Shown: positions 22,882 through 46,346, numbered from the stretch's first letter. The stretch: DNA of 64,000 bases from Lentisphaerae bacterium GWF2_49_21 (GCA_001804805.1 MHBH01000077.1:87355-151354); one strand, 5' to 3'. Made by a program: numbers and translations. Notes: generated by a model not told the origin, from the sequence alone.

Positions 22882-22882
22882 T

Positions 22883-22917: not shown

Positions 22918-22924
22918 TATTATC

Positions 22925-22948: not shown

Positions 22949-22970
22949 TTGATTTAGAAATTCGAAATTA

Positions 22971-22995
22971 GTTGGAGTTCACAGCTTTAGCGTGT
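22971..22995 (+). repeat. single GTTGGAG-headed REP
   Basis: GTTGGAGTTCACAGCTTTAGCGTGT, identical to 18803-18827. Confidence 0.75.
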
Positions 22996-23038
22996 TCTTT
23001 AATTATCGATAAATAATATAATTGGAGGAATTGTTAAT

Positions 23039-24106: not shown

Positions 24107-24262
24107 GTAGGTACGGGCTTTAGCCTGTACCATTGGTACACCCTAAAGGGCATACCTAAGAAGTAGGGACGGCCTTTCTGTGTCCGGCGTAGCCTTTTGG
24201 CGAAGTCGGAAGGCTGTCCCAATCAAGAACGTAGAATGGTACAGGCTAAAGCCCGTACCTAC
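24107..24262. repeat. compound REPIN filling the whole intergenic gap (4 REPs)
   Basis: GTAGGTACGGGCTTTAGCCTGTACC at 24107-24131, directly after the TAA stop. Its perfect inverse is at 24238-24262. Inside are a degenerate REP (24135-24160) and GTAGGGACGGCC[37-nt insert]GGCTGTCCC (24163-24220). Confidence 0.85.
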
Positions 24263-24278
24263 TTTAAGAAGATAAACT

Positions 24279-25058: not shown

Positions 25059-25267
25059 AAACGGATGTCGTGCGTGAAAAATATGTCCGTCTCATGACGG
25101 AAATCGAGGATCTCGAGGACAAGATCGAGAAAGCTGAGAAAAAAGTTTCAAAGAAGGCCGGAAAGAAGGCTGAAAAGGAGCTTGAGCTGATGAAAGAACA
25201 GCTTGCGGCGAAAAGGAACGAGCTCGCAAGGATCAGCGACGGCTGCGGAAAACCGCATGCGCATTAG
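25055..25267 (+). CDS. small coiled-coil protein with a C-terminal Cys/His tail (hypothetical)
   Basis: 70 aa. ATGA overlap with cooC (translational coupling). Lys/Glu-rich heptad-like sequence ending in DGCGKPHAH. Confidence 0.45.
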   Translation: MKTDVVREKYVRLMTEIEDLEDKIEKAEKKVSKKAGKKAEKELELMKEQLAAKRNELARISDGCGKPHAH

Positions 25268-25269
25268 AA

Positions 25270-25439
25270 GTAGGGACGGCCTTTCTGTGTCCGGCGTAGC
25301 CTTTTGGCGAAGTCGGAAGGCTGTCCCAAGCAAGAAAGCAGAATGGTACAGGCTAAAGCCCGTACCTAAGAAGTAGGGACGGCCTTTAGGCTGTCCCAAG
25401 TAAGAATGTAGAATGGTACAGGCTAAAGCCCGTACCTAC
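25270..25439. repeat. two tandem REPIN doublets
   Basis: 25270-25327 is identical to 24163-24220 (the insert-bearing REP). Paired REP at 25345-25366. GTAGGGACGGCCTTTAGGCTGTCCC at 25373-25397 is the insert-free version. GGTACAGGCTAAAGCCCGTACCTAC at 25415-25439. Confidence 0.85.
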
Positions 25440-25448
25440 TTAAACAAA

Positions 25449-26279
25449 ATGTCCTACACAATAGCAGTGACAGGCAAAGGCGGGGTCGGCAAGACGACAG
25501 TGACCGGGCTTATCATCAACCGGCTCCTGGCGAACGGACGGACGCCTGTGCTTGCCGTAGACGCGGATGCAAATTCATGCCTGCATTCCGTTCTCGGGGT
25601 GACGGTTGAGAATTCTGTCGGCAAAATCCGTGAAGAAGCACGAGAGGAAGCGTCGAAGGGAAAAGTCACGGGAATCGCAAAACAGCAGATGCTCGAAATG
25701 AAGATAGCAGAATGTCTTGTCGAAGCGAAGGATTTCGATCTTATCGCGATGGGCAGGCCCGAAGGACCGGGCTGCTACTGCTACGCGAACAATGTATTGA
25801 GGGACGTAATCCGGAAACTTTCATCGAGCTATCCATACGTGGTAATCGACAACGAGGCGGGACTTGAAAACCTTTCGCGGCGTATTGTCCAGAAGGTCGA
25901 TCTTCTTGTGATGGTCGCGGATCCTTCGAAGAACGGAATCGAGACTATCAGGCGTCTTCACAAGCTTGCCTTTGAGATGAAAATAGATTTCAAGAAGCTC
26001 TGCATCTTCATCAACAGGACCAGGGACGGCAAGATTCCTGAAGAGGCGAAATATCTGAAGAATGAGACTGAAGCTGATTTTATCATACCTCTACCCGACA
26101 ACAAGGAAATTGCATCATTCTCGGAAAAGGGAACTTCACTGTTCGAGCTTTCCGTTGAGAACGAAGTGTCCAAGATAGTAGATGAATTTGTAGGACAATT
26201 GGATTGCATATTTGGCTGCGCCAAATCTGCAAAAGCAACTGCGTTGCAGGAGAAAATGGCAGCGAAGCTGCACATATAG
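25449..26279 (+). CDS. cooC: CODH nickel-insertion ATPase (CooC family), second copy
   Basis: Start at the ATG at 25449 (the upstream part of the ORF is REP sequence). GKGGVGKTT P-loop and GPGCYCY CxC motif. Confidence 0.8.
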   Translation: MSYTIAVTGKGGVGKTTVTGLIINRLLANGRTPVLAVDADANSCLHSVLGVTVENSVGKIREEAREEASKGKVTGIAKQQMLEMKIAECLVEAKDFDLIAMGRPEGPGCYCYANNVLRDVIRKLSSSYPYVVIDNEAGLENLSRRIVQKVDLLVMVADPSKNGIETIRRLHKLAFEMKIDFKKLCIFINRTRDGKIPEEAKYLKNETEADFIIPLPDNKEIASFSEKGTSLFELSVENEVSKIVDEFVGQLDCIFGCAKSAKATALQEKMAAKLHI

Positions 26280-26311
26280 ACTGCGAAGCAGGATATATAA
26301 GGAGAATATAA

Positions 26312-28261
26312 ATGGCCAAGGAAGCTAAAAGACCGGAAGAGCTGGTTTCCGACCAGGCGTCGATCGAGACGATATTGAAAGCTCAGCTCGACTGCGTCGA
26401 AACTTGTTTCGTCAGGGCTGAAGCCCAGGGGATGCCCTGCAAGTTCGGAACACTCGGAGTATGCTGCAAGATATGCCACATGGGACCGTGCAAGATAACT
26501 CCGAAGTCTCCGCGCGGCGTCTGCGGAGCCGATGCCGACACGATTGTCGCCAGGAATTTCCTGCGCGAAACAGCTGCCGGAACTGCAGCCCATTCTGACC
26601 ATGGGCGCCATCTCGCCCTACGTTTCAAGAAGATTGCCGAAGGCAAGGAACCGGACTACAAGATCACCGATGTCAAGGCACTCCACAGGATAGCCGGAAA
26701 ATATGGAATAAAGACCGAAGGACGCGCTCAGAATGAAATAGCCCTTGAACTTGCGAATACGTTCATGTCCGAATTCACATCCCAGGAGGAACCGCTCAAG
26801 ACATTGAATCTAGCGCCGGAAAAGACCCGGGCCGTATGGAAAAAGACCAAAATCGAACCATACGGGGCAGACAGGATGGTGGTCGAGGCGATGCACCGTA
26901 CACATATGGGAGTTGATCATGATTACAGGAATCTTCTCGACATGGCCTTCAGGACTTCACTTGCAGACGGCTGGGGCGGAGCGCATGTTGCAACGCAGAT
27001 TTCCGACATAATGTTCGGAACGCCTGAACCTGTCAAAAGCAGTGCCAATCTCGGTGTGCTCGAAGAGAAGAAGGTAAATATAATTGTTCATGGACACGAG
27101 CCTGCTCTTTCGGAAATGCTCGCAACTGCGGTCTATGATCCGGAGATAATTGAATATGCGAAGAAGGCTGGAGCTGAAGGAGTGAACCTTGCAGGGCTCT
27201 GCTGCACTGCGAATGAGATCCTCATGCGCCGCGGAATAAATGTCGCCGGAAACTTCCTCCAGCAGGAACTTGCAATCATCACCGGCGCCGTTGAAATGAT
27301 GGTGGTCGATGTGCAGTGTGTGATGCCGAGCCTTCCGTCGGTCGCCGCGTCATATCATACATTGGTTGTTTCTACAACGGACATCGCAAAGACCATCGGA
27401 GCAATCCACATGGAGTTCGACGAGGATCACGCCTATCTTTCGGCAAAAAACTTAATTAAGAAGGCTATCGACAATTTCAAGAACCGCGATCCGAAGAAAA
27501 TGCAGATCCCGAAAGTCAAGGAACCTCTCATCGCAGGATTCAGCGTTGAAGCGATAAGATACATGCTCGGTGGATCATTCAGGGCTTCATTCCGCCCTCT
27601 CAACGACGCCATAATCCAGGGCAGGATCCGCGGAATCGCCGGAATCGTCGGCTGCAACAACATCAAGACTAAAACAGATTCGTATATCAACTCTATTACA
27701 AGAGAACTTATTAAACGGAACGTCCTAATTCTTAAGACGGGATGCGCCGCACAGGCCTCAGGCAAGGCTGGAAAACTTACTCCTGAAACCGCTCTGGGAG
27801 AGGCCGGACAGGGACTGCGCGAAGTCTGCGAGGCCGTAGGAATTCCGCCGATCCTCCACATGGGGAGCTGTGTCGACAACACGCGCATCCTCGAGGCTGC
27901 TTCTGAAATCGTCTATGAAGGCGGACTCGGTGACAGCATCGCGAAAGTTCCCGCAGTGGGCGTCGCCCCCGAATGGATGAGCGAGAAGGCCGTCGCGATC
28001 GGTTGTTATTTTGTGGCGTCAGGAGTCGATGTGATCCTTGGACAGCCTTTCCATATTTCCGGTTCGGAGAACGTGGTGAAATATCTCGACGAAGGGGCGA
28101 GGGAGAAGTACGGCGGGGGTTTCATATATATTCCTGATCCTATGGAGGCCGTCGAGAAGATCATGTCGCTCATCGAGGCAAAGCGTGAGAAGCTCGGTAT
28201 CAACAAGAAGGCCGAACGCAAGCTGCTCGACATGAAAGATAGGAGATCTACCAATGTCTAA
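26312..28261 (+). CDS. cooS: anaerobic Ni-Fe carbon monoxide dehydrogenase catalytic subunit
   Basis: 649 aa. N-terminal Cys clusters (CKFGTLGVCCKICHMGPC...CGA), AHSDHGRHL, GCNN, HMGSCVDN. Confidence 0.92.
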   Translation: MAKEAKRPEELVSDQASIETILKAQLDCVETCFVRAEAQGMPCKFGTLGVCCKICHMGPCKITPKSPRGVCGADADTIVARNFLRETAAGTAAHSDHGRHLALRFKKIAEGKEPDYKITDVKALHRIAGKYGIKTEGRAQNEIALELANTFMSEFTSQEEPLKTLNLAPEKTRAVWKKTKIEPYGADRMVVEAMHRTHMGVDHDYRNLLDMAFRTSLADGWGGAHVATQISDIMFGTPEPVKSSANLGVLEEKKVNIIVHGHEPALSEMLATAVYDPEIIEYAKKAGAEGVNLAGLCCTANEILMRRGINVAGNFLQQELAIITGAVEMMVVDVQCVMPSLPSVAASYHTLVVSTTDIAKTIGAIHMEFDEDHAYLSAKNLIKKAIDNFKNRDPKKMQIPKVKEPLIAGFSVEAIRYMLGGSFRASFRPLNDAIIQGRIRGIAGIVGCNNIKTKTDSYINSITRELIKRNVLILKTGCAAQASGKAGKLTPETALGEAGQGLREVCEAVGIPPILHMGSCVDNTRILEAASEIVYEGGLGDSIAKVPAVGVAPEWMSEKAVAIGCYFVASGVDVILGQPFHISGSENVVKYLDEGAREKYGGGFIYIPDPMEAVEKIMSLIEAKREKLGINKKAERKLLDMKDRRSTNV

Positions 28262-31200
28262 GATAATCTGCGGAAGCGCAATTGACGGAGCTATCGAATG
28301 GGTGGCGAAAGCCGAGGCCATACTCGACAAGGCTGTAAAGCTAAAAGGCGAATCAAGTCCGGTCGCATTTCCGAACACTGCCTATTACCTGCCTGTGATC
28401 TATTCGTTCACCGGCGAGAAGATGGAGAAGCTCTCGGATTTAAGAAGGATACTCAAGCTGGCTAAAAGCCTTCTTCCGGCGCGCCCAACCGACAAAGTTT
28501 GGCTGCCGTATCTCGGAAAGGCGCTTGATGCGGGCGCAGCAGCACTTTTCGCCTGTGAAGTGATCGAGGCGTGCAAATATCTCATCGGCCCAAATCCGGT
28601 CGACGGTATCTGGCTCGGTGCGGCGAACGATGTCATCATGCGTGAACGCGGAATTGAATTCGTCGACGGCACTGCTCCAGGATTCGCCGCCATCACCGGC
28701 GCGGCTCCGAACAGCAAGATAGCCGTAAAGATCGCGCGCGAACTCCAGGAAAAGAACCTTTATGTGTTCATGGCCGGCTGCACCAATGGCAAGCAGTTCG
28801 CCGAACAGCTCGCAGAAGAAGGCGTACAGCTCGGATGGGAGACACGGCTTGTTCCTTTCGGACGCGATGTGTCCGCTCTTATCTACGCACTTGGATTTGC
28901 GAACCGCGCAGCCCTTTCGTTCGGAGGAGTAAAACCCGGCGACTTCAAAGGAAACCTTAAATACAACAAGGAAAGAATATTTGCATTCGTCCTCGCATTG
29001 GGCGAAGTCACGGCCGACAAATATGCGGCGGCCGCAGGAGCGATCAACTACGGATTCCCTGTTATCGCCGACACCGCGATCCCGGAAATCCTACCGACCG
29101 GCGTCTGCACATACGAACATGTAGTCTCAAAAATCCCGCATGAGACGATGGTCGAGAAGGCGCTTGAAGTCAGAGGCTGCAAGATCAGGATAACAAAAGT
29201 TCCGATCCCGGTACCGTATGGCCCGGCGTTCGAGGGCGAACGCATCCGCAAGGCCGATGTCCATGTCGAATTCGGCGGGAACAAGACACCTGCATTCGAG
29301 TTTGTGACATCCGTAGATCTGGAAAGCATCAACGACGGCGAGATCGAGATCATAGGCCCTGACATTGACAAGGTAAAGGAAGGAGAAGCACTTCCTTTCG
29401 GAATCTGGGTCGAGGCCGCAGGCCGCAAGATGCAGTCCGACTTCGAACCCATCCTCGAACGCCAGATCCATCACCTGGTGAACGGCGCCGAGGGAATCTG
29501 GCACATGGGCCAGCGCGACATCATCTGGACGCGTGTCTCGAAAAACGGCTTCGCAAAAGGCCTTCGGTTGCGCCATTACGGCGAAATCCTTCATGCAAAA
29601 CTGCTTTCGGATTATCCGGCAATCGTAGACAAGGTGAAGGTCACACTAATAACCGATCTCAAGGAAGTTGAGAAACGCCTTGCCATAGCGAGGAAAGTCT
29701 ATGACGAACGCAACCGCCGTCTTGAATCCATGACAGACGAATCGGTCGACACCTTCTATTCATGCCTGCTCTGCCAGTCATTCGCGCCGAACCACGTCTG
29801 CATAATCACACCAGAACGACTCGGACTTTGCGGCGCATACAACTGGCTCGATGGAAAGGCCGCGTTTGAAATCGACGAGACCGGGCCCAACCAGCCTGTC
29901 AAGAAAGGCGAATGCCTCGATCCGGTCAAGGGCATATGGAAAGGCATCAACGATTATGTGTTCCCTAACAGCCATAAGACCGTGGATACGTTCTGCGCAT
30001 ATTCGATCATGGACAGGCCGATGACAAGCTGCGGATGCTTCGAAGTCATCTGTGCATATCTGCCGGAATGCAACGGAGTCATGGTAGTCAACCGCGAATT
30101 CCAGGGCGATACGCCTGTAGGAATGACGTTCTCCACCCTTGCCGGAAACGTCGGAGGCGGACAGCAGACGCCGGGATTCATGGGCTGTGGAAAAGTATTC
30201 CTGACTTCAAGGAAATTCCTCGGTGCCGAAGGAGGATTCAGAAGACTTGTCTGGATGCCGAAGGAGCTCAAGGAGCTTCTCGCGGCCGATCTCAAGCTGC
30301 GCTTCAAGGAACAGGGGGTTACTGATCTCATGGACAAAATAGCAGACGAGACGGTCGCGACCGAAGCCGGCGAAGTCCGCAAATATCTTGAGAAAATCGG
30401 CCATCCCGCGATCAAGATGGAGGACATGGGAGTATATGCGCATTCAGGAACCGCCGAAGCTGCTAGCCAGCCCGAGCAGGCTCCTGTCGAAATAAAACCT
30501 GTTGAGAAATTAGATGCTCCTGCCACAGACAGGAAACCGGAGGAGGAGGAAATGAAGATAACGCCTGAACTGATAAACCAGATCAAGAATCAGATCTCAA
30601 AAGAGATTTCCGATGAGCTCAAATCGACAATCGCCAAAGACATTGTCAAGGATATCATCGGAACACTGAGCGAGAAATATCTCAGGGAGAAGATCACGCA
30701 GGAACCTGCGGCGAAACCAGAGGTTCCCAAAACTGAACCAGTTCCTGTAAAGACTGTTGAAGCTCCGGTTGAAAAACCCCTCGCACAACAGGCCCCTGCC
30801 CCTACGCCAGTTGAAAGATTATCCTCGCTGAAGACCTTCAAGATCAGGAAGGACAAATGCGAGGTTCCGGTCTGGACCGTCAAGCTTGGCGCTGGCAAGA
30901 AGGAAGGCGGAACTAGAGGAAAGACCTATTCCGTCGGAGGTGCGACCTGCATGCCGTTCCATCTCTGGGAAGGTGAAATGCCAAACAGGCCTCTTGTAGC
31001 AATGGAAGTGTTCGATGTAGTCAACGATAAATATCCGCAGGTCCTCAGAAACACCTACGGCGATCTTCTTGCGAATCCCGCAAAGATGGCGAAGGCCTGC
31101 GTCGAGAAATACGGCGCGGATCTCATAAGCATCCGGCTCGAGGGGACTCATCCGGAAAAGGGCAACCGTTCACCTGAAGATTCAGTTAAACTCGTCAAGT

Positions 31201-31796
31201 CAGTTCTTGAAGCCGTCGATGTTCCGCTGATCATAACCGGGCACAACAACTTCGACAGGAACAACGAAGTGATGAAAGCTGTCGCACAGGCTTGCGCCGG
31301 AGAGAACCTGCTCCTCAACTGGGTAGAACAGAACAACTACCGCACCATCGCCGGAGCCGCGCTCGGTTACGGGCATTCGCTCGTTGCGCAGTCCCCGATC
31401 GACGTGAACATTGGCAAGCAGTTGAACATCCTCCTGACCAACATGGATGTGAAGATCGAACAGATCGTGATGGATCCGATGACAGGTTCCGTCGGCTACG
31501 GGATCGAATACACATACTCCGTGATGGAGCGCGTGAGATACACCGGACTGACCGGCGATAAGATGCTTGCAGGACCGATGATCGTCTCACCCGGACAGGA
31601 ATGCGCCAAGGTGAAGGAAGCCAAGGCCGAGGAGAAGGACTTCCCGGCATGGGGTGATCTCAAGAAACGCGCCGCCCTCTGGGAATACACGACTGCGGCG
31701 AATTTGCTTTATTCCGGCGCCGACATCCTGATCATGTACAGCCCGGAAGCGGCCGTAGCAATAAGGAAGTTAATAACAAAATTAATTAATAAATAA
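28254..31796 (+). CDS. acsB: acetyl-CoA synthase (AcsB) fused to the corrinoid Fe-S protein small subunit (AcsD)
   Basis: 1180 aa. Residues 1-725 are AcsB-like (CLLCQSFAPNHVC...LCGA and the A-cluster motif SCGCFE). Residues 726-859 form a Pro/Glu/Lys-rich linker with an amphipathic helix. Residues 860-1180 are AcsD/CdhD-like (VGGATCMPFH..., TIM-barrel type). Confidence 0.85.
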   Translation: MSKIICGSAIDGAIEWVAKAEAILDKAVKLKGESSPVAFPNTAYYLPVIYSFTGEKMEKLSDLRRILKLAKSLLPARPTDKVWLPYLGKALDAGAAALFACEVIEACKYLIGPNPVDGIWLGAANDVIMRERGIEFVDGTAPGFAAITGAAPNSKIAVKIARELQEKNLYVFMAGCTNGKQFAEQLAEEGVQLGWETRLVPFGRDVSALIYALGFANRAALSFGGVKPGDFKGNLKYNKERIFAFVLALGEVTADKYAAAAGAINYGFPVIADTAIPEILPTGVCTYEHVVSKIPHETMVEKALEVRGCKIRITKVPIPVPYGPAFEGERIRKADVHVEFGGNKTPAFEFVTSVDLESINDGEIEIIGPDIDKVKEGEALPFGIWVEAAGRKMQSDFEPILERQIHHLVNGAEGIWHMGQRDIIWTRVSKNGFAKGLRLRHYGEILHAKLLSDYPAIVDKVKVTLITDLKEVEKRLAIARKVYDERNRRLESMTDESVDTFYSCLLCQSFAPNHVCIITPERLGLCGAYNWLDGKAAFEIDETGPNQPVKKGECLDPVKGIWKGINDYVFPNSHKTVDTFCAYSIMDRPMTSCGCFEVICAYLPECNGVMVVNREFQGDTPVGMTFSTLAGNVGGGQQTPGFMGCGKVFLTSRKFLGAEGGFRRLVWMPKELKELLAADLKLRFKEQGVTDLMDKIADETVATEAGEVRKYLEKIGHPAIKMEDMGVYAHSGTAEAASQPEQAPVEIKPVEKLDAPATDRKPEEEEMKITPELINQIKNQISKEISDELKSTIAKDIVKDIIGTLSEKYLREKITQEPAAKPEVPKTEPVPVKTVEAPVEKPLAQQAPAPTPVERLSSLKTFKIRKDKCEVPVWTVKLGAGKKEGGTRGKTYSVGGATCMPFHLWEGEMPNRPLVAMEVFDVVNDKYPQVLRNTYGDLLANPAKMAKACVEKYGADLISIRLEGTHPEKGNRSPEDSVKLVKSVLEAVDVPLIITGHNNFDRNNEVMKAVAQACAGENLLLNWVEQNNYRTIAGAALGYGHSLVAQSPIDVNIGKQLNILLTNMDVKIEQIVMDPMTGSVGYGIEYTYSVMERVRYTGLTGDKMLAGPMIVSPGQECAKVKEAKAEEKDFPAWGDLKKRAALWEYTTAANLLYSGADILIMYSPEAAVAIRKLITKLINK

Positions 31797-31797
31797 T

Positions 31798-31878
31798 CTC
31801 GCACTAAGGCACAAAGGCTCTAAGTATTATGAAATTCAAAATAGATGAAACTTCGTGGCTTTGTGACTTTGTGAGAGG
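31798..31878. repeat. inverted repeat of tandem CACAAAGG-type units between acsB-D and acsC
   Basis: CTCGCACTAAGGCACAAAGGCTCTAAG against CTTCGTGGCTTTGTGACTTTGTGAGAGG. It begins 2 nt after the stop codon. Confidence 0.6.
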
Positions 31879-31902
31879 ATAAAGTTCAAGGAGGTATTCA
31901 CC

Positions 31903-33240
31903 ATGGCATTGACAGGATTACAGATACAGAAACTTCTACCGAAGACGAACTGCAAGGAATGCGGTTCGAACACGTGTCTCGCGTTTGCGATGAAGCTTGC
32001 AGCGAAAAAAGCGGAACTTTCACAATGCCCGTACGCGTCAGAAGAGGCGAAGAAAGTACTCGGTGCGGCAAGTGAACCACCGGTGAAATCAATCGTACTC
32101 GGACCCGACAAGAAACTCAAACTCGGTGAGGAGACTGTCCTTTACAGGCACGAAAAGACTTTTGTCAACCAGACCGCCCTCGCTGTCAACATAAACGACA
32201 CCGACAAGCCGGAGTCGATTGAAAAGACGCTCCGCGCGGTCGGCAGCTACCTGCTCGAGCGTGTCGGCGAAAAGCTCATCGTCGACATGGTCTGCATAAC
32301 CTGCAAGAGCGGAGATCCTGCGAAGTTCGCAAACATCTGCTCCAAGGCGTATGAGATCGCAAAGCGCCCGATCGTGATGCGCAGTTCCAGCGTCCAGGAA
32401 ATCTCAGCCGCGGCGAAGGCGGTGAAAGGTTCGAACAGCGTTATCGCATCGGCGAATCCAAAGACAGCCGATGAACTGAAAAAAATCGCCGAGGAGAACG
32501 GTCATGCGCTCGCATTGACAGCTCCTAACCTCGATGAGCTTTCAGCGCTGACTTCAAGGATCAAGGAGTCCGGCTTCAACAACATCATCCTCAATTTCGA
32601 GACGTTCTCGCTTTCAGAGCAGTTCCAGGTGAATTCAATCGCACGCAGGGCGGCGCTGAAGGACTCGTTCAAGCCTCTCGGATATCCTTCGATCAAATTC
32701 ATCGATGGAGGAGAAATGTTCGACATCGCCGGCGAGGCGATAAACGAGATCACAAAATACGGGGGGATCTGCGTGCTTCCATACTTCGATTCGGCAATGC
32801 TGGTTTCCCTGATGACGCTCCGTCTGAACATCTATACGGATCCTCAGAAGCCAATCCAGGTTGAGCCGAAAGTATATTCTATCGGCGAACCGGACAAGAA
32901 CTCCCCGGTATTCGTCACGACAAACTTCTCGCTCACATATTTTATTGTATCGGGCGAGATCGAGAACAGCGGGACAAACGCGTGGCTCGTGGTTCCAGAG
33001 TGCGAAGGCATGAGCGTCCTGACCGCCTGGGCTGCCGGTAAGTTCTCCGGCGCGTCGATCGCGAAGTTCATAAAGGGGATCGGGCTCGAGGAGCAGGTCG
33101 CCACGCGTCAGATCATAATCCCCGGCTACGTCGCGCAGATCAGCGGTGAACTCGAGGAAAGCCTTCCGGGATGGAAGGTCGTCGTAGGGCCGCAGGAAGC
33201 CGCCGACATTGAAAGCTTCGTGAAGGCGAGGATTAAGTAA
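31903..33240 (+). CDS. acsC: corrinoid iron-sulfur protein large subunit
   Basis: 445 aa. N-terminal 4Fe-4S motif CKECGSNTCLAF...C. AAGGAGG ribosome-binding site. Confidence 0.9.
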   Translation: MALTGLQIQKLLPKTNCKECGSNTCLAFAMKLAAKKAELSQCPYASEEAKKVLGAASEPPVKSIVLGPDKKLKLGEETVLYRHEKTFVNQTALAVNINDTDKPESIEKTLRAVGSYLLERVGEKLIVDMVCITCKSGDPAKFANICSKAYEIAKRPIVMRSSSVQEISAAAKAVKGSNSVIASANPKTADELKKIAEENGHALALTAPNLDELSALTSRIKESGFNNIILNFETFSLSEQFQVNSIARRAALKDSFKPLGYPSIKFIDGGEMFDIAGEAINEITKYGGICVLPYFDSAMLVSLMTLRLNIYTDPQKPIQVEPKVYSIGEPDKNSPVFVTTNFSLTYFIVSGEIENSGTNAWLVVPECEGMSVLTAWAAGKFSGASIAKFIKGIGLEEQVATRQIIIPGYVAQISGELEESLPGWKVVVGPQEAADIESFVKARIK

Positions 33241-33262
33241 TAAATTTTGCAGGCAAAATTTA
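33241..33262 (+). promoter_or_regulatory. 22-nt palindrome TAAATTTTGC-AG-GCAAAATTTA filling the acsC/RACo intergenic gap
   Basis: It starts right after the TAA stop and ends 1 nt before the ATG at 33264. No Shine-Dalgarno sequence is visible. Same outer arms as the palindrome at 20617. Confidence 0.5.
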
Positions 33263-33263
33263 T

Positions 33264-35195
33264 ATGCCACTCATCACATTCAAACCATCCGGCAAGACGA
33301 TTGATGTTCCAGCGGGAACAGAACTCCTCGAAGCCGCTAGAAAAGCAGGGATAAAGATCGACTCCCCCTGCGGGGGGAAGGGTTCCTGCGGAAAATGCAT
33401 TGTGCATGTGCTTTCCGGAATTGTCGATTCCGACAGCCTCGGTGTTCTTCCGCAGACCGCGGTCGCCGACGGCTATGTGCTTGCATGCAAGACAAAAGTT
33501 CTTGATGGTCAGATAACTGTAGACATACCGGAACAGGTCGGCAGGACCGGCGGAAAATTCACAAAGGCGACCACCGAGGATTTCAACCTGATCCGCCAGG
33601 AACTTCTTCCGGAACGATGGGAATACGAACCGCTGGCGATAAAATGGATGATCAAGGTTCCCCCTGCAAAGATCGAGGACGGACTTTCCGACCTCGACCG
33701 ACTCTCACGTGCGCTTAAAAGGGAATGGGGCGAATGCGAGATCATATATAGCCTTCCCGTCCTGAGAAAAATCCCCGACACGCTCCGCGAAAAGGATGGA
33801 ATGGTCACTTTCACGTTGGTCAATGACGCCAAGCGCTGCTATGTGATCAACATCCAGCCGGGGGATACGACAGTCAATCATTATGGTGTCGCCATCGATG
33901 TCGGGACGACAACAGTCGCCGTGGAACTCGTCTATCTCTTCCTCGGTGAAGTCGTGGCGGTGAGAAGCGACTACAACGACCAGATAGACTGCGGACTCGA
34001 CGTGATAAGCAGGATAAACTACGCAAAGAATCCAGAACGACTGGAAGAGCTCAGGAAAAGAGTATTGAATTCCGTCAACCGGCTGATAAAACAGGCCGCT
34101 GAAAGCCATAATATTGATCTGAACGACATTTCGAGCGGTGTTATTTCCGGCAATACTGCGATGATCCATCTGATGCTCGGGATCAATTCAGAATATCTGC
34201 GTTTGGAACCTTATACTCCGACCATCCGCGAATCTCCATTCCTGACCGCCGCCGAAGTCGGACTGGACATCAACCCGCAGTCATGGCTTTATTTCTCCCC
34301 CCATGTAGGAAGCTATGTCGGAGGTGACATCACTGCCGGGATACTCTGCACGGATCTTGCGACTGACAGCAAGGACATCAGCCTTTTCATCGACATCGGA
34401 ACCAACGGAGAACTTGTGATAGGAAATTCTGATTTCATGCTGACATGTGCGTGTTCCGCAGGACCGGCGTTCGAAGGCGGCGGCATCGAGTTCGGGATGA
34501 GGGCCGCACTTGGAGCAGTCGAAAAAGCCGAGGTCGATCCGAAGACTGGACGCGCGCATTACTGGACAATAGGAAATGTGAAGGCGAAAGGAATTTGCGG
34601 ATCGGGAATGATCTCTCTTCTTGCCAATCTCTATCTGACGGGATGGATCGATGCATCCGGCAAGTTCAACCGCCAGATGAAATCAAAGTATATCATCGTA
34701 GAAGGACGTTTTGCAAAATATATCATCGTGCCGGCAAAGGAAAGTGCGACAGGCAAAGACATTACCATCAGCGAGATGGACATCGAGAACATTGTCCGTG
34801 CAAAAGCCGCGATCTACTCTGCGTGCAACCTGATGCTCGAACAGGTCGGGATGAAGTTCGAGGATCTCTCTACAGTATATATAGCGGGTGGATTCGGAAG
34901 GTCGCTCGATCTTGAAAAGGCGATTGTCATCGGACTCGTGCCCGACCTGCCACGCGAAAAATTCCATTATATCGGCAACTCGTCCCTGATGGGCACATAC
35001 ATGGTGCTTCTTTCAAAGGAGTTCAGGGAGAAGCAGCTCGAGCTTGCACGGAAGATGACCTATGTCGAACTCAACACCGCCCCGGCATACATGGACCAGT
35101 ACATAGGCGCCCTATTCCTCCCGCACACCGACATCAACAGGTTCCCGACAGTTAAGAAAATGAAAGATGATTTCACCACGAAGGGCACGAAGTAA
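33264..35195 (+). CDS. corrinoid activation/regeneration protein (RACo-type; 2Fe-2S ferredoxin + ASKHA ATPase)
   Basis: 643 aa. N-terminal plant-type ferredoxin motif (CGGKGSCGKC...C) followed by an ASKHA-like domain (AIDVGTTT, DIGTNGE). Confidence 0.85.
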   Translation: MPLITFKPSGKTIDVPAGTELLEAARKAGIKIDSPCGGKGSCGKCIVHVLSGIVDSDSLGVLPQTAVADGYVLACKTKVLDGQITVDIPEQVGRTGGKFTKATTEDFNLIRQELLPERWEYEPLAIKWMIKVPPAKIEDGLSDLDRLSRALKREWGECEIIYSLPVLRKIPDTLREKDGMVTFTLVNDAKRCYVINIQPGDTTVNHYGVAIDVGTTTVAVELVYLFLGEVVAVRSDYNDQIDCGLDVISRINYAKNPERLEELRKRVLNSVNRLIKQAAESHNIDLNDISSGVISGNTAMIHLMLGINSEYLRLEPYTPTIRESPFLTAAEVGLDINPQSWLYFSPHVGSYVGGDITAGILCTDLATDSKDISLFIDIGTNGELVIGNSDFMLTCACSAGPAFEGGGIEFGMRAALGAVEKAEVDPKTGRAHYWTIGNVKAKGICGSGMISLLANLYLTGWIDASGKFNRQMKSKYIIVEGRFAKYIIVPAKESATGKDITISEMDIENIVRAKAAIYSACNLMLEQVGMKFEDLSTVYIAGGFGRSLDLEKAIVIGLVPDLPREKFHYIGNSSLMGTYMVLLSKEFREKQLELARKMTYVELNTAPAYMDQYIGALFLPHTDINRFPTVKKMKDDFTTKGTK

Positions 35196-35198
35196 TAA

Positions 35199-35228
35199 CG
35201 GACTGGATAACGGAATTTACAGGATTAT
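35199..35228 (+). promoter_or_regulatory. promoter module copy 3 (diverged): CGGACT-N18-GATTAT
   Basis: ACTGGATAACGGAATTTACAGGATTAT aligns with the 27-mers at 10001 and 21497. The -35 is weak. Confidence 0.3.
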
Positions 35229-35314
35229 TTTATGGTTATAATTCCCACAAAGAAAAAGTAATCTCTAGTCTGTGAAAGTCTGTGGCAAAATAATCTCAAA
35301 GGATTCTATATCTG

Positions 35315-35914
35315 ATGTCCAAGACCGAAGGGCAGAACGAGGCGATCAGGATTGCGGCTGCGAAACTCGCAGGGGCGGATATGTCCAGGCGTGCGGACAA
35401 CCTCGGGTTCAGCTTCATGGACAAGGGAACAATCCTAATACGTGCCTTCGGGGCCGACTACACGGTTGATTTGAAAAGTTTCGATGTCAGGAATAAAAAG
35501 GCAGGTCAGCCGGTGAGACCCGACCTGAAGATCATAATTCTCCATTATCTGCTCTTCGATAATAAATTTTCCGAAACCGGAAAATTTATAACTTTCAGGG
35601 ATCTGCCTGGCGGACAGTTCTATCTTGAGCCTTACAAATCCAGGAGTGTCAACATCTTGTCCAGCGTGATAAAGGACGACGTTGCCCGATTGAAGAAGAA
35701 TCTTGGCCGTCTTGACTGGAAGGATAAGACTCCCGGCGACATCGGGGCGGAAATCCACGTTATTGGGAAAATCAAAGTGAACCTGATCTATTACAAGAGC
35801 GACGAAGAAATGCCGGCGACCGCAGATTTCGTATATGATTCGTCCATAAAGAACGTATTCAGCACGGAAGATGTGGTTGTAATGGCCTCATTGATATGCA
35901 GGATGCTGTTGTAA
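35315..35914 (+). CDS. hypothetical protein, DUF3786-like (a family I recall as co-occurring with acs clusters)
   Basis: 199-aa ORF, last gene of the cluster. The family assignment is from memory of its general character, not from a motif. Confidence 0.45.
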   Translation: MSKTEGQNEAIRIAAAKLAGADMSRRADNLGFSFMDKGTILIRAFGADYTVDLKSFDVRNKKAGQPVRPDLKIIILHYLLFDNKFSETGKFITFRDLPGGQFYLEPYKSRSVNILSSVIKDDVARLKKNLGRLDWKDKTPGDIGAEIHVIGKIKVNLIYYKSDEEMPATADFVYDSSIKNVFSTEDVVVMASLICRMLL

Positions 35915-35920
35915 TAGAGC

Positions 35921-35955
35921 CGTCGGTCGTCAGTGGTCAGTCGTCAGTTGTCAGT
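35921..35955 (+). repeat. 5 x 7-mer tandem array (CGTCGGT CGTCAGT GGTCAGT CGTCAGT TGTCAGT)
   Basis: Begins 7 nt after the stop codon at 35912-35914. Confidence 0.7.
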
Positions 35956-36011
35956 AGCTGATGTCATATCTACCAGTAAAGCAAGTTTTTTACAACCATA
36001 TTCCAATTTGA

Positions 36012-36049
36012 CTTGCCATTCGAAGCTAGCAAAGCGATAGCGAAGAATG
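36012..36049 (+). repeat. direct repeat 1 flanking the GIY-YIG gene
   Basis: CTTGCCATTCGAAGC...GAAGAATG. An imperfect copy lies at 36392-36432. Confidence 0.6.
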
Positions 36050-36316
36050 TTAAAATTCTAACTTCTTGAGTAAGTGCTTGCTGATGAATGCCTTTCCTGA
36101 AGAAGATTTAAGATATTTCTCGAAGTTGAAGGCTGTAGCGGAGTCGGAAAACACAGTATATGTTTCTAGCTCCCACGGAGCATATCTTTTAGTGTATATC
36201 TGTGACTCTGAGTTATGTTCCTGTATTCTTCTTGAAAGATTTTCAGTGCAACCAACATAAACTTTATCTGGGGATTTAACACTTCTTAGGATATATACAT
36301 AATATTTTTCATTCAT
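36050..36316 (-). CDS. GIY-YIG nuclease family protein (small, stand-alone)
   Basis: 88 aa. YYVYIL...VYVGCT...R..EH motif series of the GIY-YIG domain. Confidence 0.8.
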   Translation of the reverse strand: MNEKYYVYILRSVKSPDKVYVGCTENLSRRIQEHNSESQIYTKRYAPWELETYTVFSDSATAFNFEKYLKSSSGKAFISKHLLKKLEF

Positions 36317-36391
36317 AGATATATTCTCCTGGAATTATTATCCTTGCATGTCTAAAGTAGAATCAAGATATCAAGCATATTCAATATCCGG

Positions 36392-36432
36392 CTTGCCATT
36401 CGAAGCCACGAACGGAGTGAGGGTGAAGAATG
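36392..36432 (+). repeat. direct repeat 2 flanking the GIY-YIG gene, abutting the tRNA 3' end
   Basis: CTTGCCATTCGAAGC...GAAGAATG. It ends at the CCA end of tRNA-Pro. Confidence 0.6.
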
Positions 36433-36508
36433 GTCGGGACGGTGAGATTCGAACTCACGGCCTACAGACCCCCAGTCTGACGCGCTAACCAGGCTGCGCT
36501 ACGTCCCG
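36431..36508 (-). tRNA. tRNA-Pro (anticodon GGG), CCA encoded
   Basis: Manual cloverleaf fold: acceptor CGGGACG/CGTCCCG, D stem GCGC/GCGC, anticodon loop CTGGGGG, T arm GTGAG-TTCGAAT-CTCAC, discriminator A plus CCA. Confidence 0.9.
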
Positions 36509-36518
36509 ACGACGCCCC

Positions 36519-36548
36519 TTAAAATGTAACAAAGGTTGTTTTTTTCAA
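36519..36548 (-). promoter_or_regulatory. candidate tRNA promoter TTGAAA-N18-TTTTAA
   Basis: Minus-strand reading. The -10 ends 10 nt before the mature tRNA 5' end. Sequence match only. Confidence 0.3.
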
Positions 36549-36678
36549 GGACGACAACAGAATATTTCAATTTTTAAGAAAATTTCATTTTTTATTTGAA
36601 AGAATGGATTATTTGCAATAGATTAATGGAATTGTTAAATAATTTTATTTCCTAAGTATCAGAGAAAGGACGCTAAAG

Positions 36679-37239
36679 ATGAAAAAAATTGTTGCTCTGG
36701 TGGTGATTGTATTTGCCATGACGGCCGGGACTGTAACTCAGGCTACGGTGCTGGACAAGATTGTGATGTACATCCCGAACAGGATCGTCGATGTGACGGA
36801 TATAATCTCGCTTTCACTTGGATTCGGACCATGCGCAAGAGCTGAAATGTGGTGCACAAGGCCGTTTTCCTTCGGAGCCGGTACAGGCGTCGAAGCCAAG
36901 ATGATAAAGGGTTACAACCGCCAGTACGGTTTCGGTCTTGAATCCGGATGGGATACCAGTTTCGTGATGATTTCCGCCGAAGGCAAGGAACTCCAGTCAA
37001 CTATCGGAACTGTAAAGACCGTTGAATACTATGCCTCAGGCGTTCCGGATCTCAGGAAGAAGGACTACAGCTATTCCGAAGGTTCAAGGGACTACTGGTC
37101 AGTAGGCGTCCAGGCTGGCTGCGGAATCGCCGAAGTCGACGCTGAATTCCATGCCATCGAACTCTTCGACTTTTTTGCCGGCTTCATTTTCTTTGATCTC
37201 AAGGATGACGATATAACAATGAATGACCTGAGCAACTGA
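36679..37239 (+). CDS. secreted hypothetical protein
   Basis: 186 aa. Signal peptide MKKIVALVVIVFAMTAGTVTQA. A strong terminator lies downstream. Confidence 0.55.
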   Translation: MKKIVALVVIVFAMTAGTVTQATVLDKIVMYIPNRIVDVTDIISLSLGFGPCARAEMWCTRPFSFGAGTGVEAKMIKGYNRQYGFGLESGWDTSFVMISAEGKELQSTIGTVKTVEYYASGVPDLRKKDYSYSEGSRDYWSVGVQAGCGIAEVDAEFHAIELFDFFAGFIFFDLKDDDITMNDLSN

Positions 37240-37261
37240 TACTTGATTGAATGATACTGAA

Positions 37262-37291
37262 GGGCGCGGAAAAATCCGCGCCCTTTTTTTT
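37262..37291 (+). terminator. rho-independent terminator
   Basis: GGGCGCGGA-AAAA-TCCGCGCCC followed by T8. Confidence 0.85.
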
Positions 37292-37323
37292 CGACATAGC
37301 AGAAAGCCGGCCAATGATAATAG

Positions 37324-37511
37324 CTGCAGGTTGACGCAATAGTGAACGCCGCGAACTGCTCCCTCCTCGGGGGTGGCAGGGTTGACAGAGCAATTCAAAG
37401 GGCCGCAGGCCCGGAGCTTCTCGAGGAATGCAGGAAGTCATATTTACTGCGTTCAGCACTGATGCTGAAGATATCTACAAGTCGCTCATCAAAGAAATTT
37501 CCCCGAAATAA
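37324..37511 (+). pseudogene. macro domain (O-acetyl-ADP-ribose deacetylase-like) gene remnant
   Basis: [38 protein letters not shown] is the macro-domain N-terminal motif, but no start codon is present. In another frame, after a frame shift at about 37440, there is a C-terminal-like tail [23 protein letters not shown]. Roughly 110 internal codons are missing. Confidence 0.65.
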
Positions 37512-37578
37512 AAATTTTTTATTTGACAATTCGCCTATTTATATTTAATTGCGATTGTCATAATAAACGGAGAAATTA

Positions 37579-38688
37579 ATGGGCGACACGGAAAATCTCA
37601 AGCTGACTCCTCTCTATAACAGGCATCTGGCCCTCGGAGCTAAAATGGTTCCCTTTGCCGGCTGGAACATGCCTGTCCAGTATTCCGAAGGAATCATCGC
37701 CGAGCACAGGCACACCAGGACCCACGTTTCCATATTCGACATATTCCACATGGGCGAGTTCCGCGTAAAAGGTTCAGGAGCTGCCGCCGCACTCGACAAG
37801 CTTCTCGCCAGGGCGGTAGCCGACCAGAAGACAGGAACCTGCAGATATAATTTCCTGCTAAATGAAAAAGGTACCGTGATCGACGACCTTATTGTATACA
37901 GGATGGATGAAAATGAGTTTTTCATTGTCGTCAATGCTGGAACAAGGGGGAACGATGCGGCAAGATTCCGCAAGCTCCTTCCCTCTGATGTATCATTCGC
38001 GGATGAATCCGACTCAACTGCCAAGCTTGATCTCCAGGGACCTGAAAGCGCGGATGTGCTCATTGGCCTGGGATTCAAAAAGGAAAACCTTCCGCTTTAC
38101 TACAAATGGATCAAGACGCAGATCAATGGCATTCCATGCATCCTGAGCCGGACCGGATACACCGGGGAACTCGGTTTCGAGATTTATTTCCCGGCCGACA
38201 AATCCGAAACTATGTGGGATCTCCTGCTGAAACAGAAGAATGTCAAGCCCGCCGGCCTTGGCGCACGCGACACGCTCCGCCTTGAAATGGGCTATCCCCT
38301 CTACGGACATGAGCTCAATCTCGAAACAACTCTGGTGGAGGCTGGATTCGCACCTATCCTCAAGCTTGGAGAAAAACGCGATTTCATAGGTTCCGACGTG
38401 CTGCGGAATTCGCATCCTGCAAAAAGACTCGCAGGAATAGTCCTGGACGGGCGCCGCGCCGCAAGGGAGGGGACTCCTGTGTTCATCTCCGGAAAGGAGG
38501 CCGGCAAGGTTTCTTCAGGCACTTTCTCTCCTTCGCTTGAAAAAGCAGTGGCCATGGCGTTTATTGGATCCGTATTCAAAATAGAAGACGGAACTCCGGT
38601 GGAGCTTGCAACTGACAGATTCAAGATAACGGGCAGAATTGCATCTGTTCCATTCTATAAGAACGGGACGGCACGGATTAAAATTTAA
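37579..38688 (+). CDS. gcvT: glycine cleavage system aminomethyltransferase T
   Basis: 369 aa. TPLYNRHLALGAKMVPFAGWNMPVQY, SRTGYTGELGFEI. Confidence 0.92.
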   Translation: MGDTENLKLTPLYNRHLALGAKMVPFAGWNMPVQYSEGIIAEHRHTRTHVSIFDIFHMGEFRVKGSGAAAALDKLLARAVADQKTGTCRYNFLLNEKGTVIDDLIVYRMDENEFFIVVNAGTRGNDAARFRKLLPSDVSFADESDSTAKLDLQGPESADVLIGLGFKKENLPLYYKWIKTQINGIPCILSRTGYTGELGFEIYFPADKSETMWDLLLKQKNVKPAGLGARDTLRLEMGYPLYGHELNLETTLVEAGFAPILKLGEKRDFIGSDVLRNSHPAKRLAGIVLDGRRAAREGTPVFISGKEAGKVSSGTFSPSLEKAVAMAFIGSVFKIEDGTPVELATDRFKITGRIASVPFYKNGTARIKI

Positions 38689-38779
38689 AAAAACTATAAA
38701 AAATATTTTTTTCGCCCTATTATTTTTAAAAAAACAAATTATATAAAAACATTCTTTCGAAATTCACTTGGAGGCTTAG

Positions 38780-39166
38780 ATGAAAAAATACACTAAAGAA
38801 CATGAATGGGTGGAGATAAAAGGCCGGGAGGCAGTCATAGGCATCACCGCCTATGCCGCCAAGGAGCTTGGAGATATCACTTTTGTCGAAGTCCATCCGG
38901 AGGGGACAGATGTGATCGTCGGAGATGTGATAGGGACTATTGAGTCCGTCAAAGCCGCGTCCGACGTATATTCCCCGATAAGCGGAACTATCTCCGCGAC
39001 CAACACGGAGCTCGAGGAGGAACCGGCGATAGTGAACAATTCCCCCGAGGAGAAGGGCTGGGTCTGCAAGCTTGACAACATAGACCTTGTCGAACTTGAA
39101 GAGCTCATGACAAAGGAGCAATACGACAAATTCCTCAAGGAGTCCGCTTCCTCGTCCAAGAAGTAA
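38780..39166 (+). CDS. gcvH: glycine cleavage system H protein
   Basis: 128 aa. YTKEHEWV and the lipoyl-lysine context ESVKAASD. Confidence 0.92.
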   Translation: MKKYTKEHEWVEIKGREAVIGITAYAAKELGDITFVEVHPEGTDVIVGDVIGTIESVKAASDVYSPISGTISATNTELEEEPAIVNNSPEEKGWVCKLDNIDLVELEELMTKEQYDKFLKESASSSKK

Positions 39167-43770: not shown

Positions 43771-43790
43771 TTGAAACTCCTTATAAAAAT

Positions 43791-43873
43791 TGGATTAATG
43801 GATTGCTGGATTTATGGATTAATGGTTTTGGATATTAACCCAGTCATCCAACCATCCATCAATCCAATCATCC
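43791..43873. repeat. inverted repeat built from tandem TGGATTWA 8-mers
   Basis: TGGATTAA TGGATTGC TGGATTTA TGGATTAA TGGTTT TGGATATT (43791-43836), followed by inverted ATCCA units (43841-43873). Confidence 0.65.
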
Positions 43874-43966
43874 TTGCTCCACTTACTTTAATGTGCTATA
43901 TTATCACTTCAAGAGAATATGCCATGCGTATAATTTGCATTTTAATGAGGTATATGCGCATTATAA

Positions 43967-44034
43967 GTAGATACGCCCTTCAGGGTGTATCATTCTTAAA
44001 TATTAAGATGGTACATGCTAAAGCACGTACCTAC
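43967..44034. repeat. REPIN doublet upstream of araC
   Basis: GTAGATACGCCCTTCAGGGTGTATC (43967-43991) and GGTACATGCTAAAGCACGTACCTAC (44010-44034). Confidence 0.8.
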
Positions 44035-44046
44035 TTTAGGAGCACC

Positions 44047-44867: not shown

Positions 44868-44991
44868 GTAGGTACGTGCTTTCCTGTCCTGAGCTTATCG
44901 AAGGGAGAATGTACCATCTTTTCTCAATAATGGTACACCCTGAAGGGCGTACCTACTTTTAAGAACATCCCTTACGGGATTAACTATAAAC
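44868..44991. repeat. REPIN doublet (left unit carries a loop insert) plus a right-hand outer-shell arm only
   Basis: GTAGGTACGTGC[tttcctgtcctgagcttatcgaagggagaat]GTACC (44868-44915); GGTACACCCTGAAGGGCGTACCTAC (44932-44956); ATCCCTTACGGGAT+TAACTATAAAC (44967-44991). Confidence 0.75.
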
Positions 44992-46192: not shown

Positions 46193-46277
46193 CAGCAAAT
46201 AAACATACGATATTTTGACTGCAGCAGTTATTAACAGAGGCAATTTCAAAATTGCCTCTTTTGAGCTGATTGCTAAA

Positions 46278-46346
46278 GTAGGAGTTCACAGCTTTAGATG
46301 TGCATCCAATTGATGATAAGACACAACTGAAGTTGTGAACTCCAAC
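46278..46346. repeat. GT[A/T]GGAG-headed REPIN doublet
   Basis: GTAGGAGTTCACAGCTTTAGATGTG (46278-46302) and ACACAACTGAAGTTGTGAACTCCAAC (46321-46346). Confidence 0.75.

Follow-up and report, generated by a model that had tools for sequence, protein, structure and literature searches.

Tandem 7-9-nt arrays between the genes of a Victivallales genome: candidate stem arms of small IVS-like hairpin cassettes

Genomic context

In this study, a stretch of 64,000 nucleotides from Lentisphaerae bacterium GWF2_49_21 (hereafter the window) was analyzed. It carries a Wood-Ljungdahl gene cluster encoding ACS/CODH, CdhD, RACo, and DUF3786, of which the DUF3786 gene is the last and is followed by a short tandem array starting at position 35921. 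The acetyl-CoA synthase (ACS) gene (28254-31796, + strand) encodes a 1180-aa fusion composed of a CODH alpha N-terminal domain, CdhC/ACS beta, and a CdhD-like C-terminal part. This ACS/CODH fusion protein shares 91% identity with an uncultured Victivallis contig, and the source of the window is a Victivallales (Lentisphaerota) metagenome-assembled genome. The same DNA is also present in ENA ERZ27254744 (264-kb contig) and in GCA_003488745.1. As comparison set, 19 Lentisphaerota loci and 61 loci of other phyla were retrieved with the same protein; the fusion is common to these 80 loci from many phyla. Loci used for comparison are designated by L and a number. Within the window, Rfam matched tRNA-Pro only. 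A stretch initially taken for intergenic contains an ORF of 70 aa (25055-25267, + strand; MKTDVVREKYVRLMTEIEDLEDKIEK...GCGKPHAH), which is kept in L001, L003, L005, and L006 and thus probably represents a real small gene.

Tandem arrays and hairpin arms in the window

A preliminary description of the window had listed short units repeated 3-6 times in tandem, starting just after stop codons and often followed by an inverted array. By direct inspection and with Tandem Repeats Finder (TRF), all of these arrays were found, together with some that had been overlooked. The following features were recorded:

8538-8582 (+): solo array, TGTCGGACA-like, period 9, 3-4 units, detected by TRF
9995-10030 (+): 5' arm, GACAGGATA-ACAGGATTA-ACAGGATAA, copy 1 of the ACAGGATA element, ~10 nt past the stop at 9985
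10043-10067 (+): 3' arm, ATCCTGTAATCCAGTC, inverted partner of 9995-10030 (p = 0.005)
19409-19436 (+): 5' arm, CCACGAAACACACGAAA, 4-6 nt past the stop at 19405 (z = -7.7)
19512-19545 (+): 3' arm, TTTCGTGTG...GTGTGTTTCGTGG, ends at the following gene's start region
21491-21526 (+): solo copy 2 of the ACAGGATA element in a divergent gap, 89% identity to 9995-10030
22883-22923 (+): solo array, TTGATAC x2, then TCGTAAC, TTGAAAT, TGGAAAT, 1 nt past the stop
31797-31824 (+): 5' arm, CTCGCACTAAGGCACAAAGGCTCTAAG, directly 3' of the ACS stop, arm of a gene-less GxxExxY cassette
31825-31850 (+): loop, TATTATGAAATTCAAAATAGATGAAA, by alignment a degraded remnant of the GxxExxY ORF's initial codons
31851-31880 (+): 3' arm, CTTCGTGGCTTTGTGACTTTGTGAGAGG (p = 0.01), ~20 nt upstream of the CdhD start at 31903
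35196-35231 (+): copy 3, ACAGGATA-type element, directly past the RACo stop, 75% identity to copy 1
35921-35955 (+): solo array, NGTCAGT x5 (CGTCAGT-like), 6 nt past the DUF3786 stop
43789-43825 (+): 5' arm, TGGATTAA x4-5, in the divergent gap between GH2 and AraC, arm of a gene-less four-helix-bundle cassette
43834-43873 (+): 3' arm, inverted CATCCAAC-type array, 35 nt being 80% complementary to the 43789 arm
49568-49604 (+): CCACAGAACACAC-type array covering the last codons of the ORF 47526-49622
52093-52128 (+): solo array, GGCGTAAC-like, period 8, in a convergent gap after the CstA stop
59317-59357 (+): 5' arm, TCCAATATCGAACAAGGAAT..., overlapping the stop at 59319 (z = -3.9)
59386-59426 (+): 3' arm, TTGGATATTGGAAATTCCTTGTTGGATATTGG, ending 15 nt before a probable ATG at 59442

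As tandem arrays, those at 19411, 31798, and 59321 are weak, with 2-4 degenerate units, each being the 5' arm in a long inverted repeat. The described downstream partners in inverted orientation were confirmed for the four pairs 19411/19512, 31797/31851, 43789/43834, and 59317/59386, with RNA fold z-scores of -2.0 to -7.7. The pair 9995-10030/10043-10067 had been overlooked, as had the ACAGGATA element copies at 21491 and 35196 and the CCACAGAACACAC-type array at ~49570. Thus, the window holds five pairs of arms (9995/10043, 19409/19512, 31797/31851, 43789/43834, and 59317/59386), and the loops of these hairpins span 10-80 nt. The 9995/10043 hairpin folds with z = -3.5 on the + strand and -6.1 on the - strand, the 43789/43834 hairpin with -2.7 and -5.5, respectively. 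The 19409 arm contains a 15-nt exact complement to its partner at 19512, and in the L001 counterpart both arms are changed in a matching, pair-preserving manner as judged by eye. The 59317/59386 arms comprise 41 nt with 80% complementarity, and this element family (59317-59426) also occurs in L026 at 13560-13690.

No inverted partner in the own gap was found for the solo arrays 8538, 22883, 35921, and 52093, and their sense-strand fold was no better than that of shuffled sequences. The 8538 array (p = 0.32 for a partner) lies between a stop at 8510, 28 nt upstream, and a probable start at 8616. The 22883 array consists of two exact TTGATAC units and three degenerate ones; a G+C-rich hairpin follows behind it, with a second direct run, TTAGAAA/TTCGAAA, located 3' of this hairpin at 22947-22972, and the equivalent site of L001 has the TTGAAATTGGAAAT part only. 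Depending on the caller, the 52093 array starts 8-14 nt past the CstA stop (TRF 52093; lag scan 52099). By eye, the 49568 array resembles arrays at L001 1976 and L164 11292; by blastn-short, it was not recovered as a paralogue of 19409. When the window arms were searched with blastn-short against the window, only a link between 9995 and 21496 appeared beyond the known pairs.

The 35921 array (TRF: period 7, 5.0 copies, 85% matches) starts 6 nt after the TAA at 35912-35914. In its 764-nt gap, no inverted partner was detected anywhere (p = 0.63). The exact unit GTCAGTN had no other occurrence in the loci scanned and is private to this genome there, the array is absent from L001 and L005, and it is identical in the assemblies aligned. 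It adjoins a window-specific insertion of a GIY-YIG gene beside tRNA-Pro; a weak ATCAAGNAT repeat beyond this gene showed no complementarity to the array by eye. The GIY-YIG gene (88 aa; 36053-36316, - strand) is flanked by two ~40-nt copies of CTTGCCATTCGAAGC...GAAGAATG (~36003-36050 and 36385-36432) and lies just downstream of the tRNA, tRNA-Pro(GGG) at 36431-36508. L001 has one CTTGCCATTCGAAGC...GAAGAATG copy without the gene, as if a small insertion had duplicated its target in the window.

Recurrence of unit families

According to the preliminary description, the unit sequence was unique to each locus. This did not hold, as unit families recur at non-orthologous loci and in other genomes. 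Recurring units are ACAGGATA, CACAAAGG/CACAGAGG, TGGATTAA, TTGGATA/AACAAGGAAT, and the GTCAG type. The ACAGGATA element, 36 nt long, has three copies in the window (9995, 21491, 35196) and further ones in L001, L039, and L046; the copy at 35196 has an orthologous counterpart in L001. TGGAGTRR/TGGATTAA goes with one four-helix-bundle subfamily, and CACAAAGR with GxxExxY genes. The unit is therefore a mark of the element lineage and not of the locus. A core motif common to the unit families was not seen, in line with the earlier statement that a single family of DNA-binding sites does not account for the arrays. The commonest number of units in an arm is 3-4.

Two observations concern the surroundings of ACAGGATA copies. 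The copy at 21494-21523 (+) contains the best sigma-70-like match of its region (TTGACA, 18 nt, GATAAT; 11/12), located upstream of a methyltransferase gene, the first of a gene cluster; judged by this match, the repeat may supply a promoter. In the RACo-DUF3786 gap of L001 (17060-17330), an ORF of ~85 aa, hydrophobic by eye, lies between the ACAGGATA element and a GTCTGTGAAA repeat. The corresponding window stretch 35232-35266 has kept both repeats and lost the small ORF.

Array excess, placement, and pairing

For detection of arrays, a tandem score was calculated as self-similarity at lags 4-14 with a threshold score of at least 8, and 200 dinucleotide shuffles served as control. The 6 kb of intergenic DNA in the window contained 8 arrays of period 7-9 versus ~0.65 in shuffles (~12x), i.e., 2, 3, and 3 arrays for periods 7, 8, and 9 at ~0.2 expected each, and none of period 4-6. 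An excess over shuffled controls, as proposed, is thus present. It is a lineage property common to other Victivallales/Lentisphaerota loci: the density per kb of intergenic DNA was 1.81 in the 19 Lentisphaerota loci and 0.56 in the 61 loci of other phyla. Intergenic density exceeded coding density 22-fold for period 7 and 12-fold for period 8, and only 3.5-fold for period 9.

The described start just after a stop codon is a real but partial tendency: of 38 arrays in co-directional gaps of the window and the 19 Lentisphaerota loci, 10 begin within the 10% of free space nearest to the stop (binomial p = 0.003), and the others are scattered over the remainder. For 22/71 arrays (31%), the gap also contains a significant inverted partner. 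The 35921 array and the 59317 pair were identical between independent assemblies of the same organism; hence, no ongoing slippage was seen. At the 22883 site, unit number differs between the window (TTGATAC x2) and L001 (a single diverged unit). Comparing stem stability on sense and antisense strands (G-U versus A-C) gave 43 versus 28 (p = 0.15), with a mixed picture in the window, and thereby no signature of selection at the RNA rather than the DNA level.

The ACS-CdhD gap and GxxExxY cassettes

A comparison of orthologous gaps had been suggested, and at ACS-CdhD it revealed the same site to be empty, gene-less, or gene-carrying depending on the lineage. Six more distant Victivallales have a bare gap of 25-35 nt without an array. 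One CACAAAGG/CTTTGTG hairpin, in which CTCNCACAAAGGCAC... pairs with ...CTTTGTGGCTTTGTGAGAG, is common to the window, L001, L002, L004, and L006. In L004, it encloses a 127-aa GxxExxY ORF (TIGR04256, E = 2e-41). The first 17 nt of this ORF read ATGAATGAAAATGAAAT in both L004 and L006, the gene-less loop of L006 having kept them exactly; the gene-less loops of L001 and L002 contain a diverged version and that of the window a degraded remnant only. Since gene-less loops retain this ORF start, the short hairpins are deletion derivatives. The window hairpin is kept in five relatives with 26 pairs, of which 4 show compensatory changes; G-U changes occur as well.

Other lineages have different occupants at this site. 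In L003 and L005, TGGATTAA arms surround a gene for a 157-aa PF05635 '23S rRNA intervening sequence protein', and the order of the four units in their 5' arm nearly matches that at window positions 43789-43825; for L003, the four units agree at ~31/34 bases (both by eye). L015 carries another four-helix-bundle cassette, and L026 the element family of window 59317-59426. Among the ACS loci, all four-helix-bundle ORFs (7/7) and both GxxExxY ORFs (2/2) are bracketed by arms.

Further GxxExxY loci (8/8, representing 6 proteins/neighbourhoods) have the window's own arm type and an ATGAATG start, so that overall the GxxExxY genes at 10/10 loci are bracketed by inverted 7-9-nt arrays. The GxxExxY proteins share 75-80% identity across phyla, and no relatives were found in viral contigs. 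In L169 (1100-1240), a gene-less hairpin is nested directly 3' of the GxxExxY gene.

Four-helix-bundle cassettes

A metagenome scan was performed with an alignment of three four-helix-bundle sequences, as one of five sequences was too divergent. It returned 80 loci, of which 71, from one four-helix-bundle subfamily, had enough flanking sequence. Period-8 arrays were present on both sides in 66/71, and inverse-complementary flanks in 69/71, the dominant unit being TGGAGTRR paired with YYACTCCA. Neighbouring genes were similarly bracketed in only 4/61 cases, and all 4 have a gene-less hairpin with the same unit on one side and a full cassette on the other. Cassette length ranges from 493 to 780 nt, and at least 18 different neighbourhoods are represented. 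Upstream and downstream genes are mostly co-directional (34/38 and 39/44, respectively). In 25/34 cassettes, the distance from the upstream stop to the start of the 5' arm is -13 to +7 nt, and in 26/39 a spacing of 0-23 nt separates the end of the 3' arm from the following ORF. In the window pairs and most cassettes, the 3' arm is followed by the ribosome-binding site of the next gene and not by a T run. Rfam gave no match in 20 cassette loci.

In L087, L123, L128, and L150 (~440-660), gene-less hairpins and gene-carrying cassettes with the same unit occupy successive gaps of one operon and surround an ABC transporter ATPase gene. Each TGGAGTRR unit in the 5' arms of L083-L162 has GGAG followed by ATG; where inspected, the four-helix-bundle ORF appears to take both its ribosome-binding site and its start codon from the last unit. 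These loci have a 3' arm that is rich in CUCC and resembles an anti-Shine-Dalgarno sequence, so pairing would hide the start region.

Discussion

On balance, we consider it probable that the arrays belong to small selfish hairpin cassettes of the same type as the intervening sequences (IVS) of 23S rRNA genes, but located between protein genes; the arrays would be their terminal stem arms or single arms left behind. A complete cassette consists of a 5' arm of ~3-6 tandem 7-9-nt units, a small ORF, and an inverted-complement 3' arm. The ORF belongs to one of two families, the four-helix-bundle 'S23p/23S rRNA IVS protein' (TIGR02436/PF05635) and GxxExxY (TIGR04256/PF13366). Cassettes usually have host-operon orientation, begin within a few bases of a stop codon, and finish just before the next ribosome-binding site, probably because the operon tolerates ~100-600 extra bases only there. 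Slippage would later alter number and sequence of the units in place. In the transcript, the arms are expected to pair into a stem of 25-40 bp, which RNase III probably cuts as in the Coxiella IVS, whereby the insert would be removed or the operon RNA cut. The window stems of 25-40 bp would in principle be long enough for this enzyme, and a role of the arrays as RNA processing sites, as suggested in the preliminary description, is plausible by analogy. A terminator role suggested there found no support: in a scan of 19000-38900, none of the arrays overlapped a G+C-rich stem followed by a T run.

Two of the five window hairpins (31797, 43789) are directly linked to gene-carrying cassettes. No cargo ORF of either family was found in the window by tblastn or among the called genes of the flanking 20 kb; for this genome, the claim therefore rests on homology to relatives. 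The distribution of the cassettes suggests that they move or have moved; neither a transposase for them nor a target-site duplication nor an exact pair of empty and filled sites was identified, and the element boundaries are too fuzzy for scoring duplications. Less surely than for the paired arrays, single arrays may be lone arms or products of local slippage. The 35921 array is the weakest fit to the cassette explanation and could be either.

Pure local slippage would make all arrays long simple-sequence repeats of 5-11 nt with dominant heptamers, formed in place without element identity or function and tolerated only outside genes, their inverted partners having arisen by template switching. 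Frameshift purging predicts what was seen in coding DNA, namely strong depletion of periods 7 and 8 and much less of period 9. The TTGATAC x2 of the window opposite a single diverged unit in L001, the solo arrays without a fold, and the private 35921 unit, absent from L001/L005, also agree with slippage, which was proposed for heptamer excess by Mrazek 2007 as summarised in PMC4679880. It does not account for three ACAGGATA copies at non-orthologous loci, the presence of the 59317 element in L026, the almost unchanged order of units between the TGGATTAA arms of the window and L003 (by eye), arms travelling with specific genes across phyla, inverted partners for 31% of the arrays, or equal copy number between the compared assemblies. 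For the paired arrays this reading is already contradicted, and as a general explanation we regard it as unlikely. The earlier view that simple slippage is insufficient is thus borne out, since multi-unit arrangements recur across loci and genomes and homologues of the paired arrays enclose genes. It is quite unlikely, too, that the hairpins are RNA structures serving the host, either by setting stability and stoichiometry of operon segments like REP sequences of E. coli or by terminating transcription. They do occur at operon ends and, in the Wood-Ljungdahl operon, between cistrons; five relatives retain the hairpin behind ACS, in which some positions show compensatory or G-U changes; and RNase III cuts the homologous IVS stem (PMC4990558). 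However, more distant relatives manage the same gene pair with a bare gap of 25-35 nt, unrelated hairpin types occupy the same site in different lineages, no terminator-like site falls on arrays in 19000-38900, a sense-strand preference is lacking, and Rfam gave no match.

If each array were read by an oligomeric regulator that binds RNA or DNA as TRAP, HutP, or CsrA do, or by AraC at 43791, a short core at regular spacing would be explained. The four-helix-bundle arms have GGAG and ATG in each unit, S23p is a homopentamer (Lin 2006, cited in PMC4990558), and TAACTGA repeats have been proposed to bind S1, Csp, or CsrA (PMC4679880). Against such sites stand the missing core across unit families, a peak at 3-4 and not 5 units per arm, TGGATTAA arrays far from any AraC gene, and the lack of an identified binding protein, which makes this explanation very unlikely. 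An AraC operator at 43791 in particular was rejected, as the same arms occur after ACS and elsewhere, and a match of unit number to a pentameric protein found no support at a mode of 3-4 units. We also rejected the idea that the arms close all three reading frames with stops (10/61 observed versus 16 expected). Finally, the arrays might be REP/REPIN elements moved by the RAYT-type Y1 transposase of the window (PF01797, 63114-63593), in a genome rich in REP-like hairpin doublets and with paired arrays that are hairpin-forming doublets themselves. As the transposase gene lies between copies of another repeat, CTGTAGCCGCGTCACTCTGCTGACGCGTC, rather than between periodic arrays, and as periodic arms travel with four-helix-bundle and GxxExxY genes in many phyla, there is hardly any likelihood for this.

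The cassette explanation has its closest precedent in rRNA IVS (Coxiella, Leptospira, Brucella; PMC4990558). The Coxiella 23S rRNA IVS is a selfish element with a 28-bp terminal stem and an ORF for S23p, a four-helix-bundle protein; 2-4 tandem GACAGAT heptamers, whose number varies among strains, precede the ATG, and RNase III cuts at the first repeat (PMC4990558). Shared features are a long terminal inverted-repeat stem, an ORF of the same family (PF05635/TIGR02436) in the loop, tandem heptamers in the 5' arm before the ATG, sporadic distribution, and ORF decay. Terminal inverted repeats forming a long stem were found in the five window pairs, 69/71 four-helix-bundle loci, and 8/8 GxxExxY loci, but not in the four solo arrays. 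The window arms have tandem heptamer-class repeats in the 5' stem arm, and an S23p/four-helix-bundle ORF in the loop is missing from the window and present in homologous cassettes of relatives. In contrast to rRNA IVS, the cassettes lie between protein genes and not in 23S rRNA helices 9, 25, or 45; no rRNA was found in the window or in 20 cassette loci and thus no insertion in helix 9/25/45 of 23S or 16S rRNA. Also unlike rRNA IVS, the window copies are without ORF, and a second cargo family, GxxExxY, uses the same layout. A literature search limited to open-access publications found no description of these cassettes outside rRNA genes.

Heptamer repeats such as STRR, GGGNATC, and TAACTGA, and the long simple-sequence repeats (LSSR) of Mrazek 2007, likewise consist of few tandem units of the 7-nt class in lineage-specific intergenic DNA. 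In the window, too, tandem arrays of 7-9-nt units exceed chance and are concentrated between genes. GGGNATC repeats of Xanthomonas and Nostoc are located up to 50 bp after the stop when on the coding strand and up to 50 bp before an ORF when on the other strand, no association with mobile elements being stated (PMC4692102), and share the placement rule with our arrays. TAACTGA repeats are intergenic in Beggiatoaceae and are reported to follow this rule as well (PMC4679880). The arrays here differ by many unit families per genome instead of one to three, by a third of arrays in inverted pairs, and by the link to gene-carrying cassettes, the last of these not being described in PMC4692102 and PMC4679880.

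MITEs are comparable as short gene-less derivatives that retain the terminal inverted repeats of a longer element and are present in several intergenic copies per genome. Derivatives of this type, sharing their termini with a longer element, were seen in the ACS-CdhD alignment and among TGGAGTRR hairpins, which occur gene-less and gene-carrying in one operon. Different from MITEs, the terminal repeats are internally periodic and the cargo is a four-helix-bundle or PD-(D/E)XK-like protein. To our knowledge, these cassettes have no transposase-encoding parent, and we know of no cargo protein among them that is a transposase. REP/BIME/REPIN sequences also form intergenic hairpin doublets after stop codons inside operons, but REP units are single imperfect palindromes without 7-9-nt periodicity.

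A farther-reaching version, which we regard as unlikely as a whole, would take the tandem 7-9-mers as cis sites by which oligomeric cargo proteins, namely pentameric four-helix-bundle S23p/Avd-like and PD-(D/E)XK-like GxxExxY proteins, recognise and propagate their own cassette. The cassettes might then be tiny autonomous elements of a new class, either mobile or homing, that target the gap between stop codon and ribosome-binding site, with rRNA IVS as a special case, and the cyanobacterial STRR, Xanthomonas GGGNATC, and Beggiatoaceae TAACTGA repeats might be their gene-less footprints.

S23p-like four-helix-bundle and GxxExxY proteins are among the commonest small protein families of unknown role. 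We know of no explanation for the intergenic heptamer-class repeats of cyanobacteria, Xanthomonas, and sulfur bacteria despite decades of cataloguing. One layout joins these two questions with that of the origin of rRNA IVS: periodic inverted arms around a small gene were found at 69/71 and 10/10 sampled loci in many phyla, placement after stop codons is of near-base precision, and gene-less descendants look exactly like the puzzling repeats. If the cassette explanation is true, many 'simple repeats' would have to be annotated as element remnants, operon gaps with such arrays would be expected RNA cleavage points, and the S23p and GxxExxY families would gain a testable role.

Other repeats in the window

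The Y1 transposase gene (PF01797, 159 aa; 63114-63593, + strand) has inverted 29-31-nt CTGTAGCCGCGTCACTCTGCTGACGCGTC copies on both sides (62941-63089 and 63606-63755), an arrangement of a RAYT with REP sequences; a CTGTAGCCGCGTCACTCTGCTGACGCGTC copy was also found in the hairpin loop of L006. REP/BIME-like hairpin doublets (e.g., GGTACGGGCTTTAGCCTGTACC) are located at 18237-18319, 20681-20762, 21634-21716, 24103-24273, 25318-25450, 43963-44045, and 44931-44974, and also occur in L003 and L005. They have a constant loop (CTTTAG/CTAAAG/CTTCAG), variable stems, and a recurrent G-T mismatch at one stem position. Two further dispersed families of intergenic hairpins, GTTGGAGTTCACAGCTTTAG... and GTAGTTAAGCC..., were detected at 18802-18822, 22970-22990, and 46277-46297, and also at 18198, 46117, and 49642.
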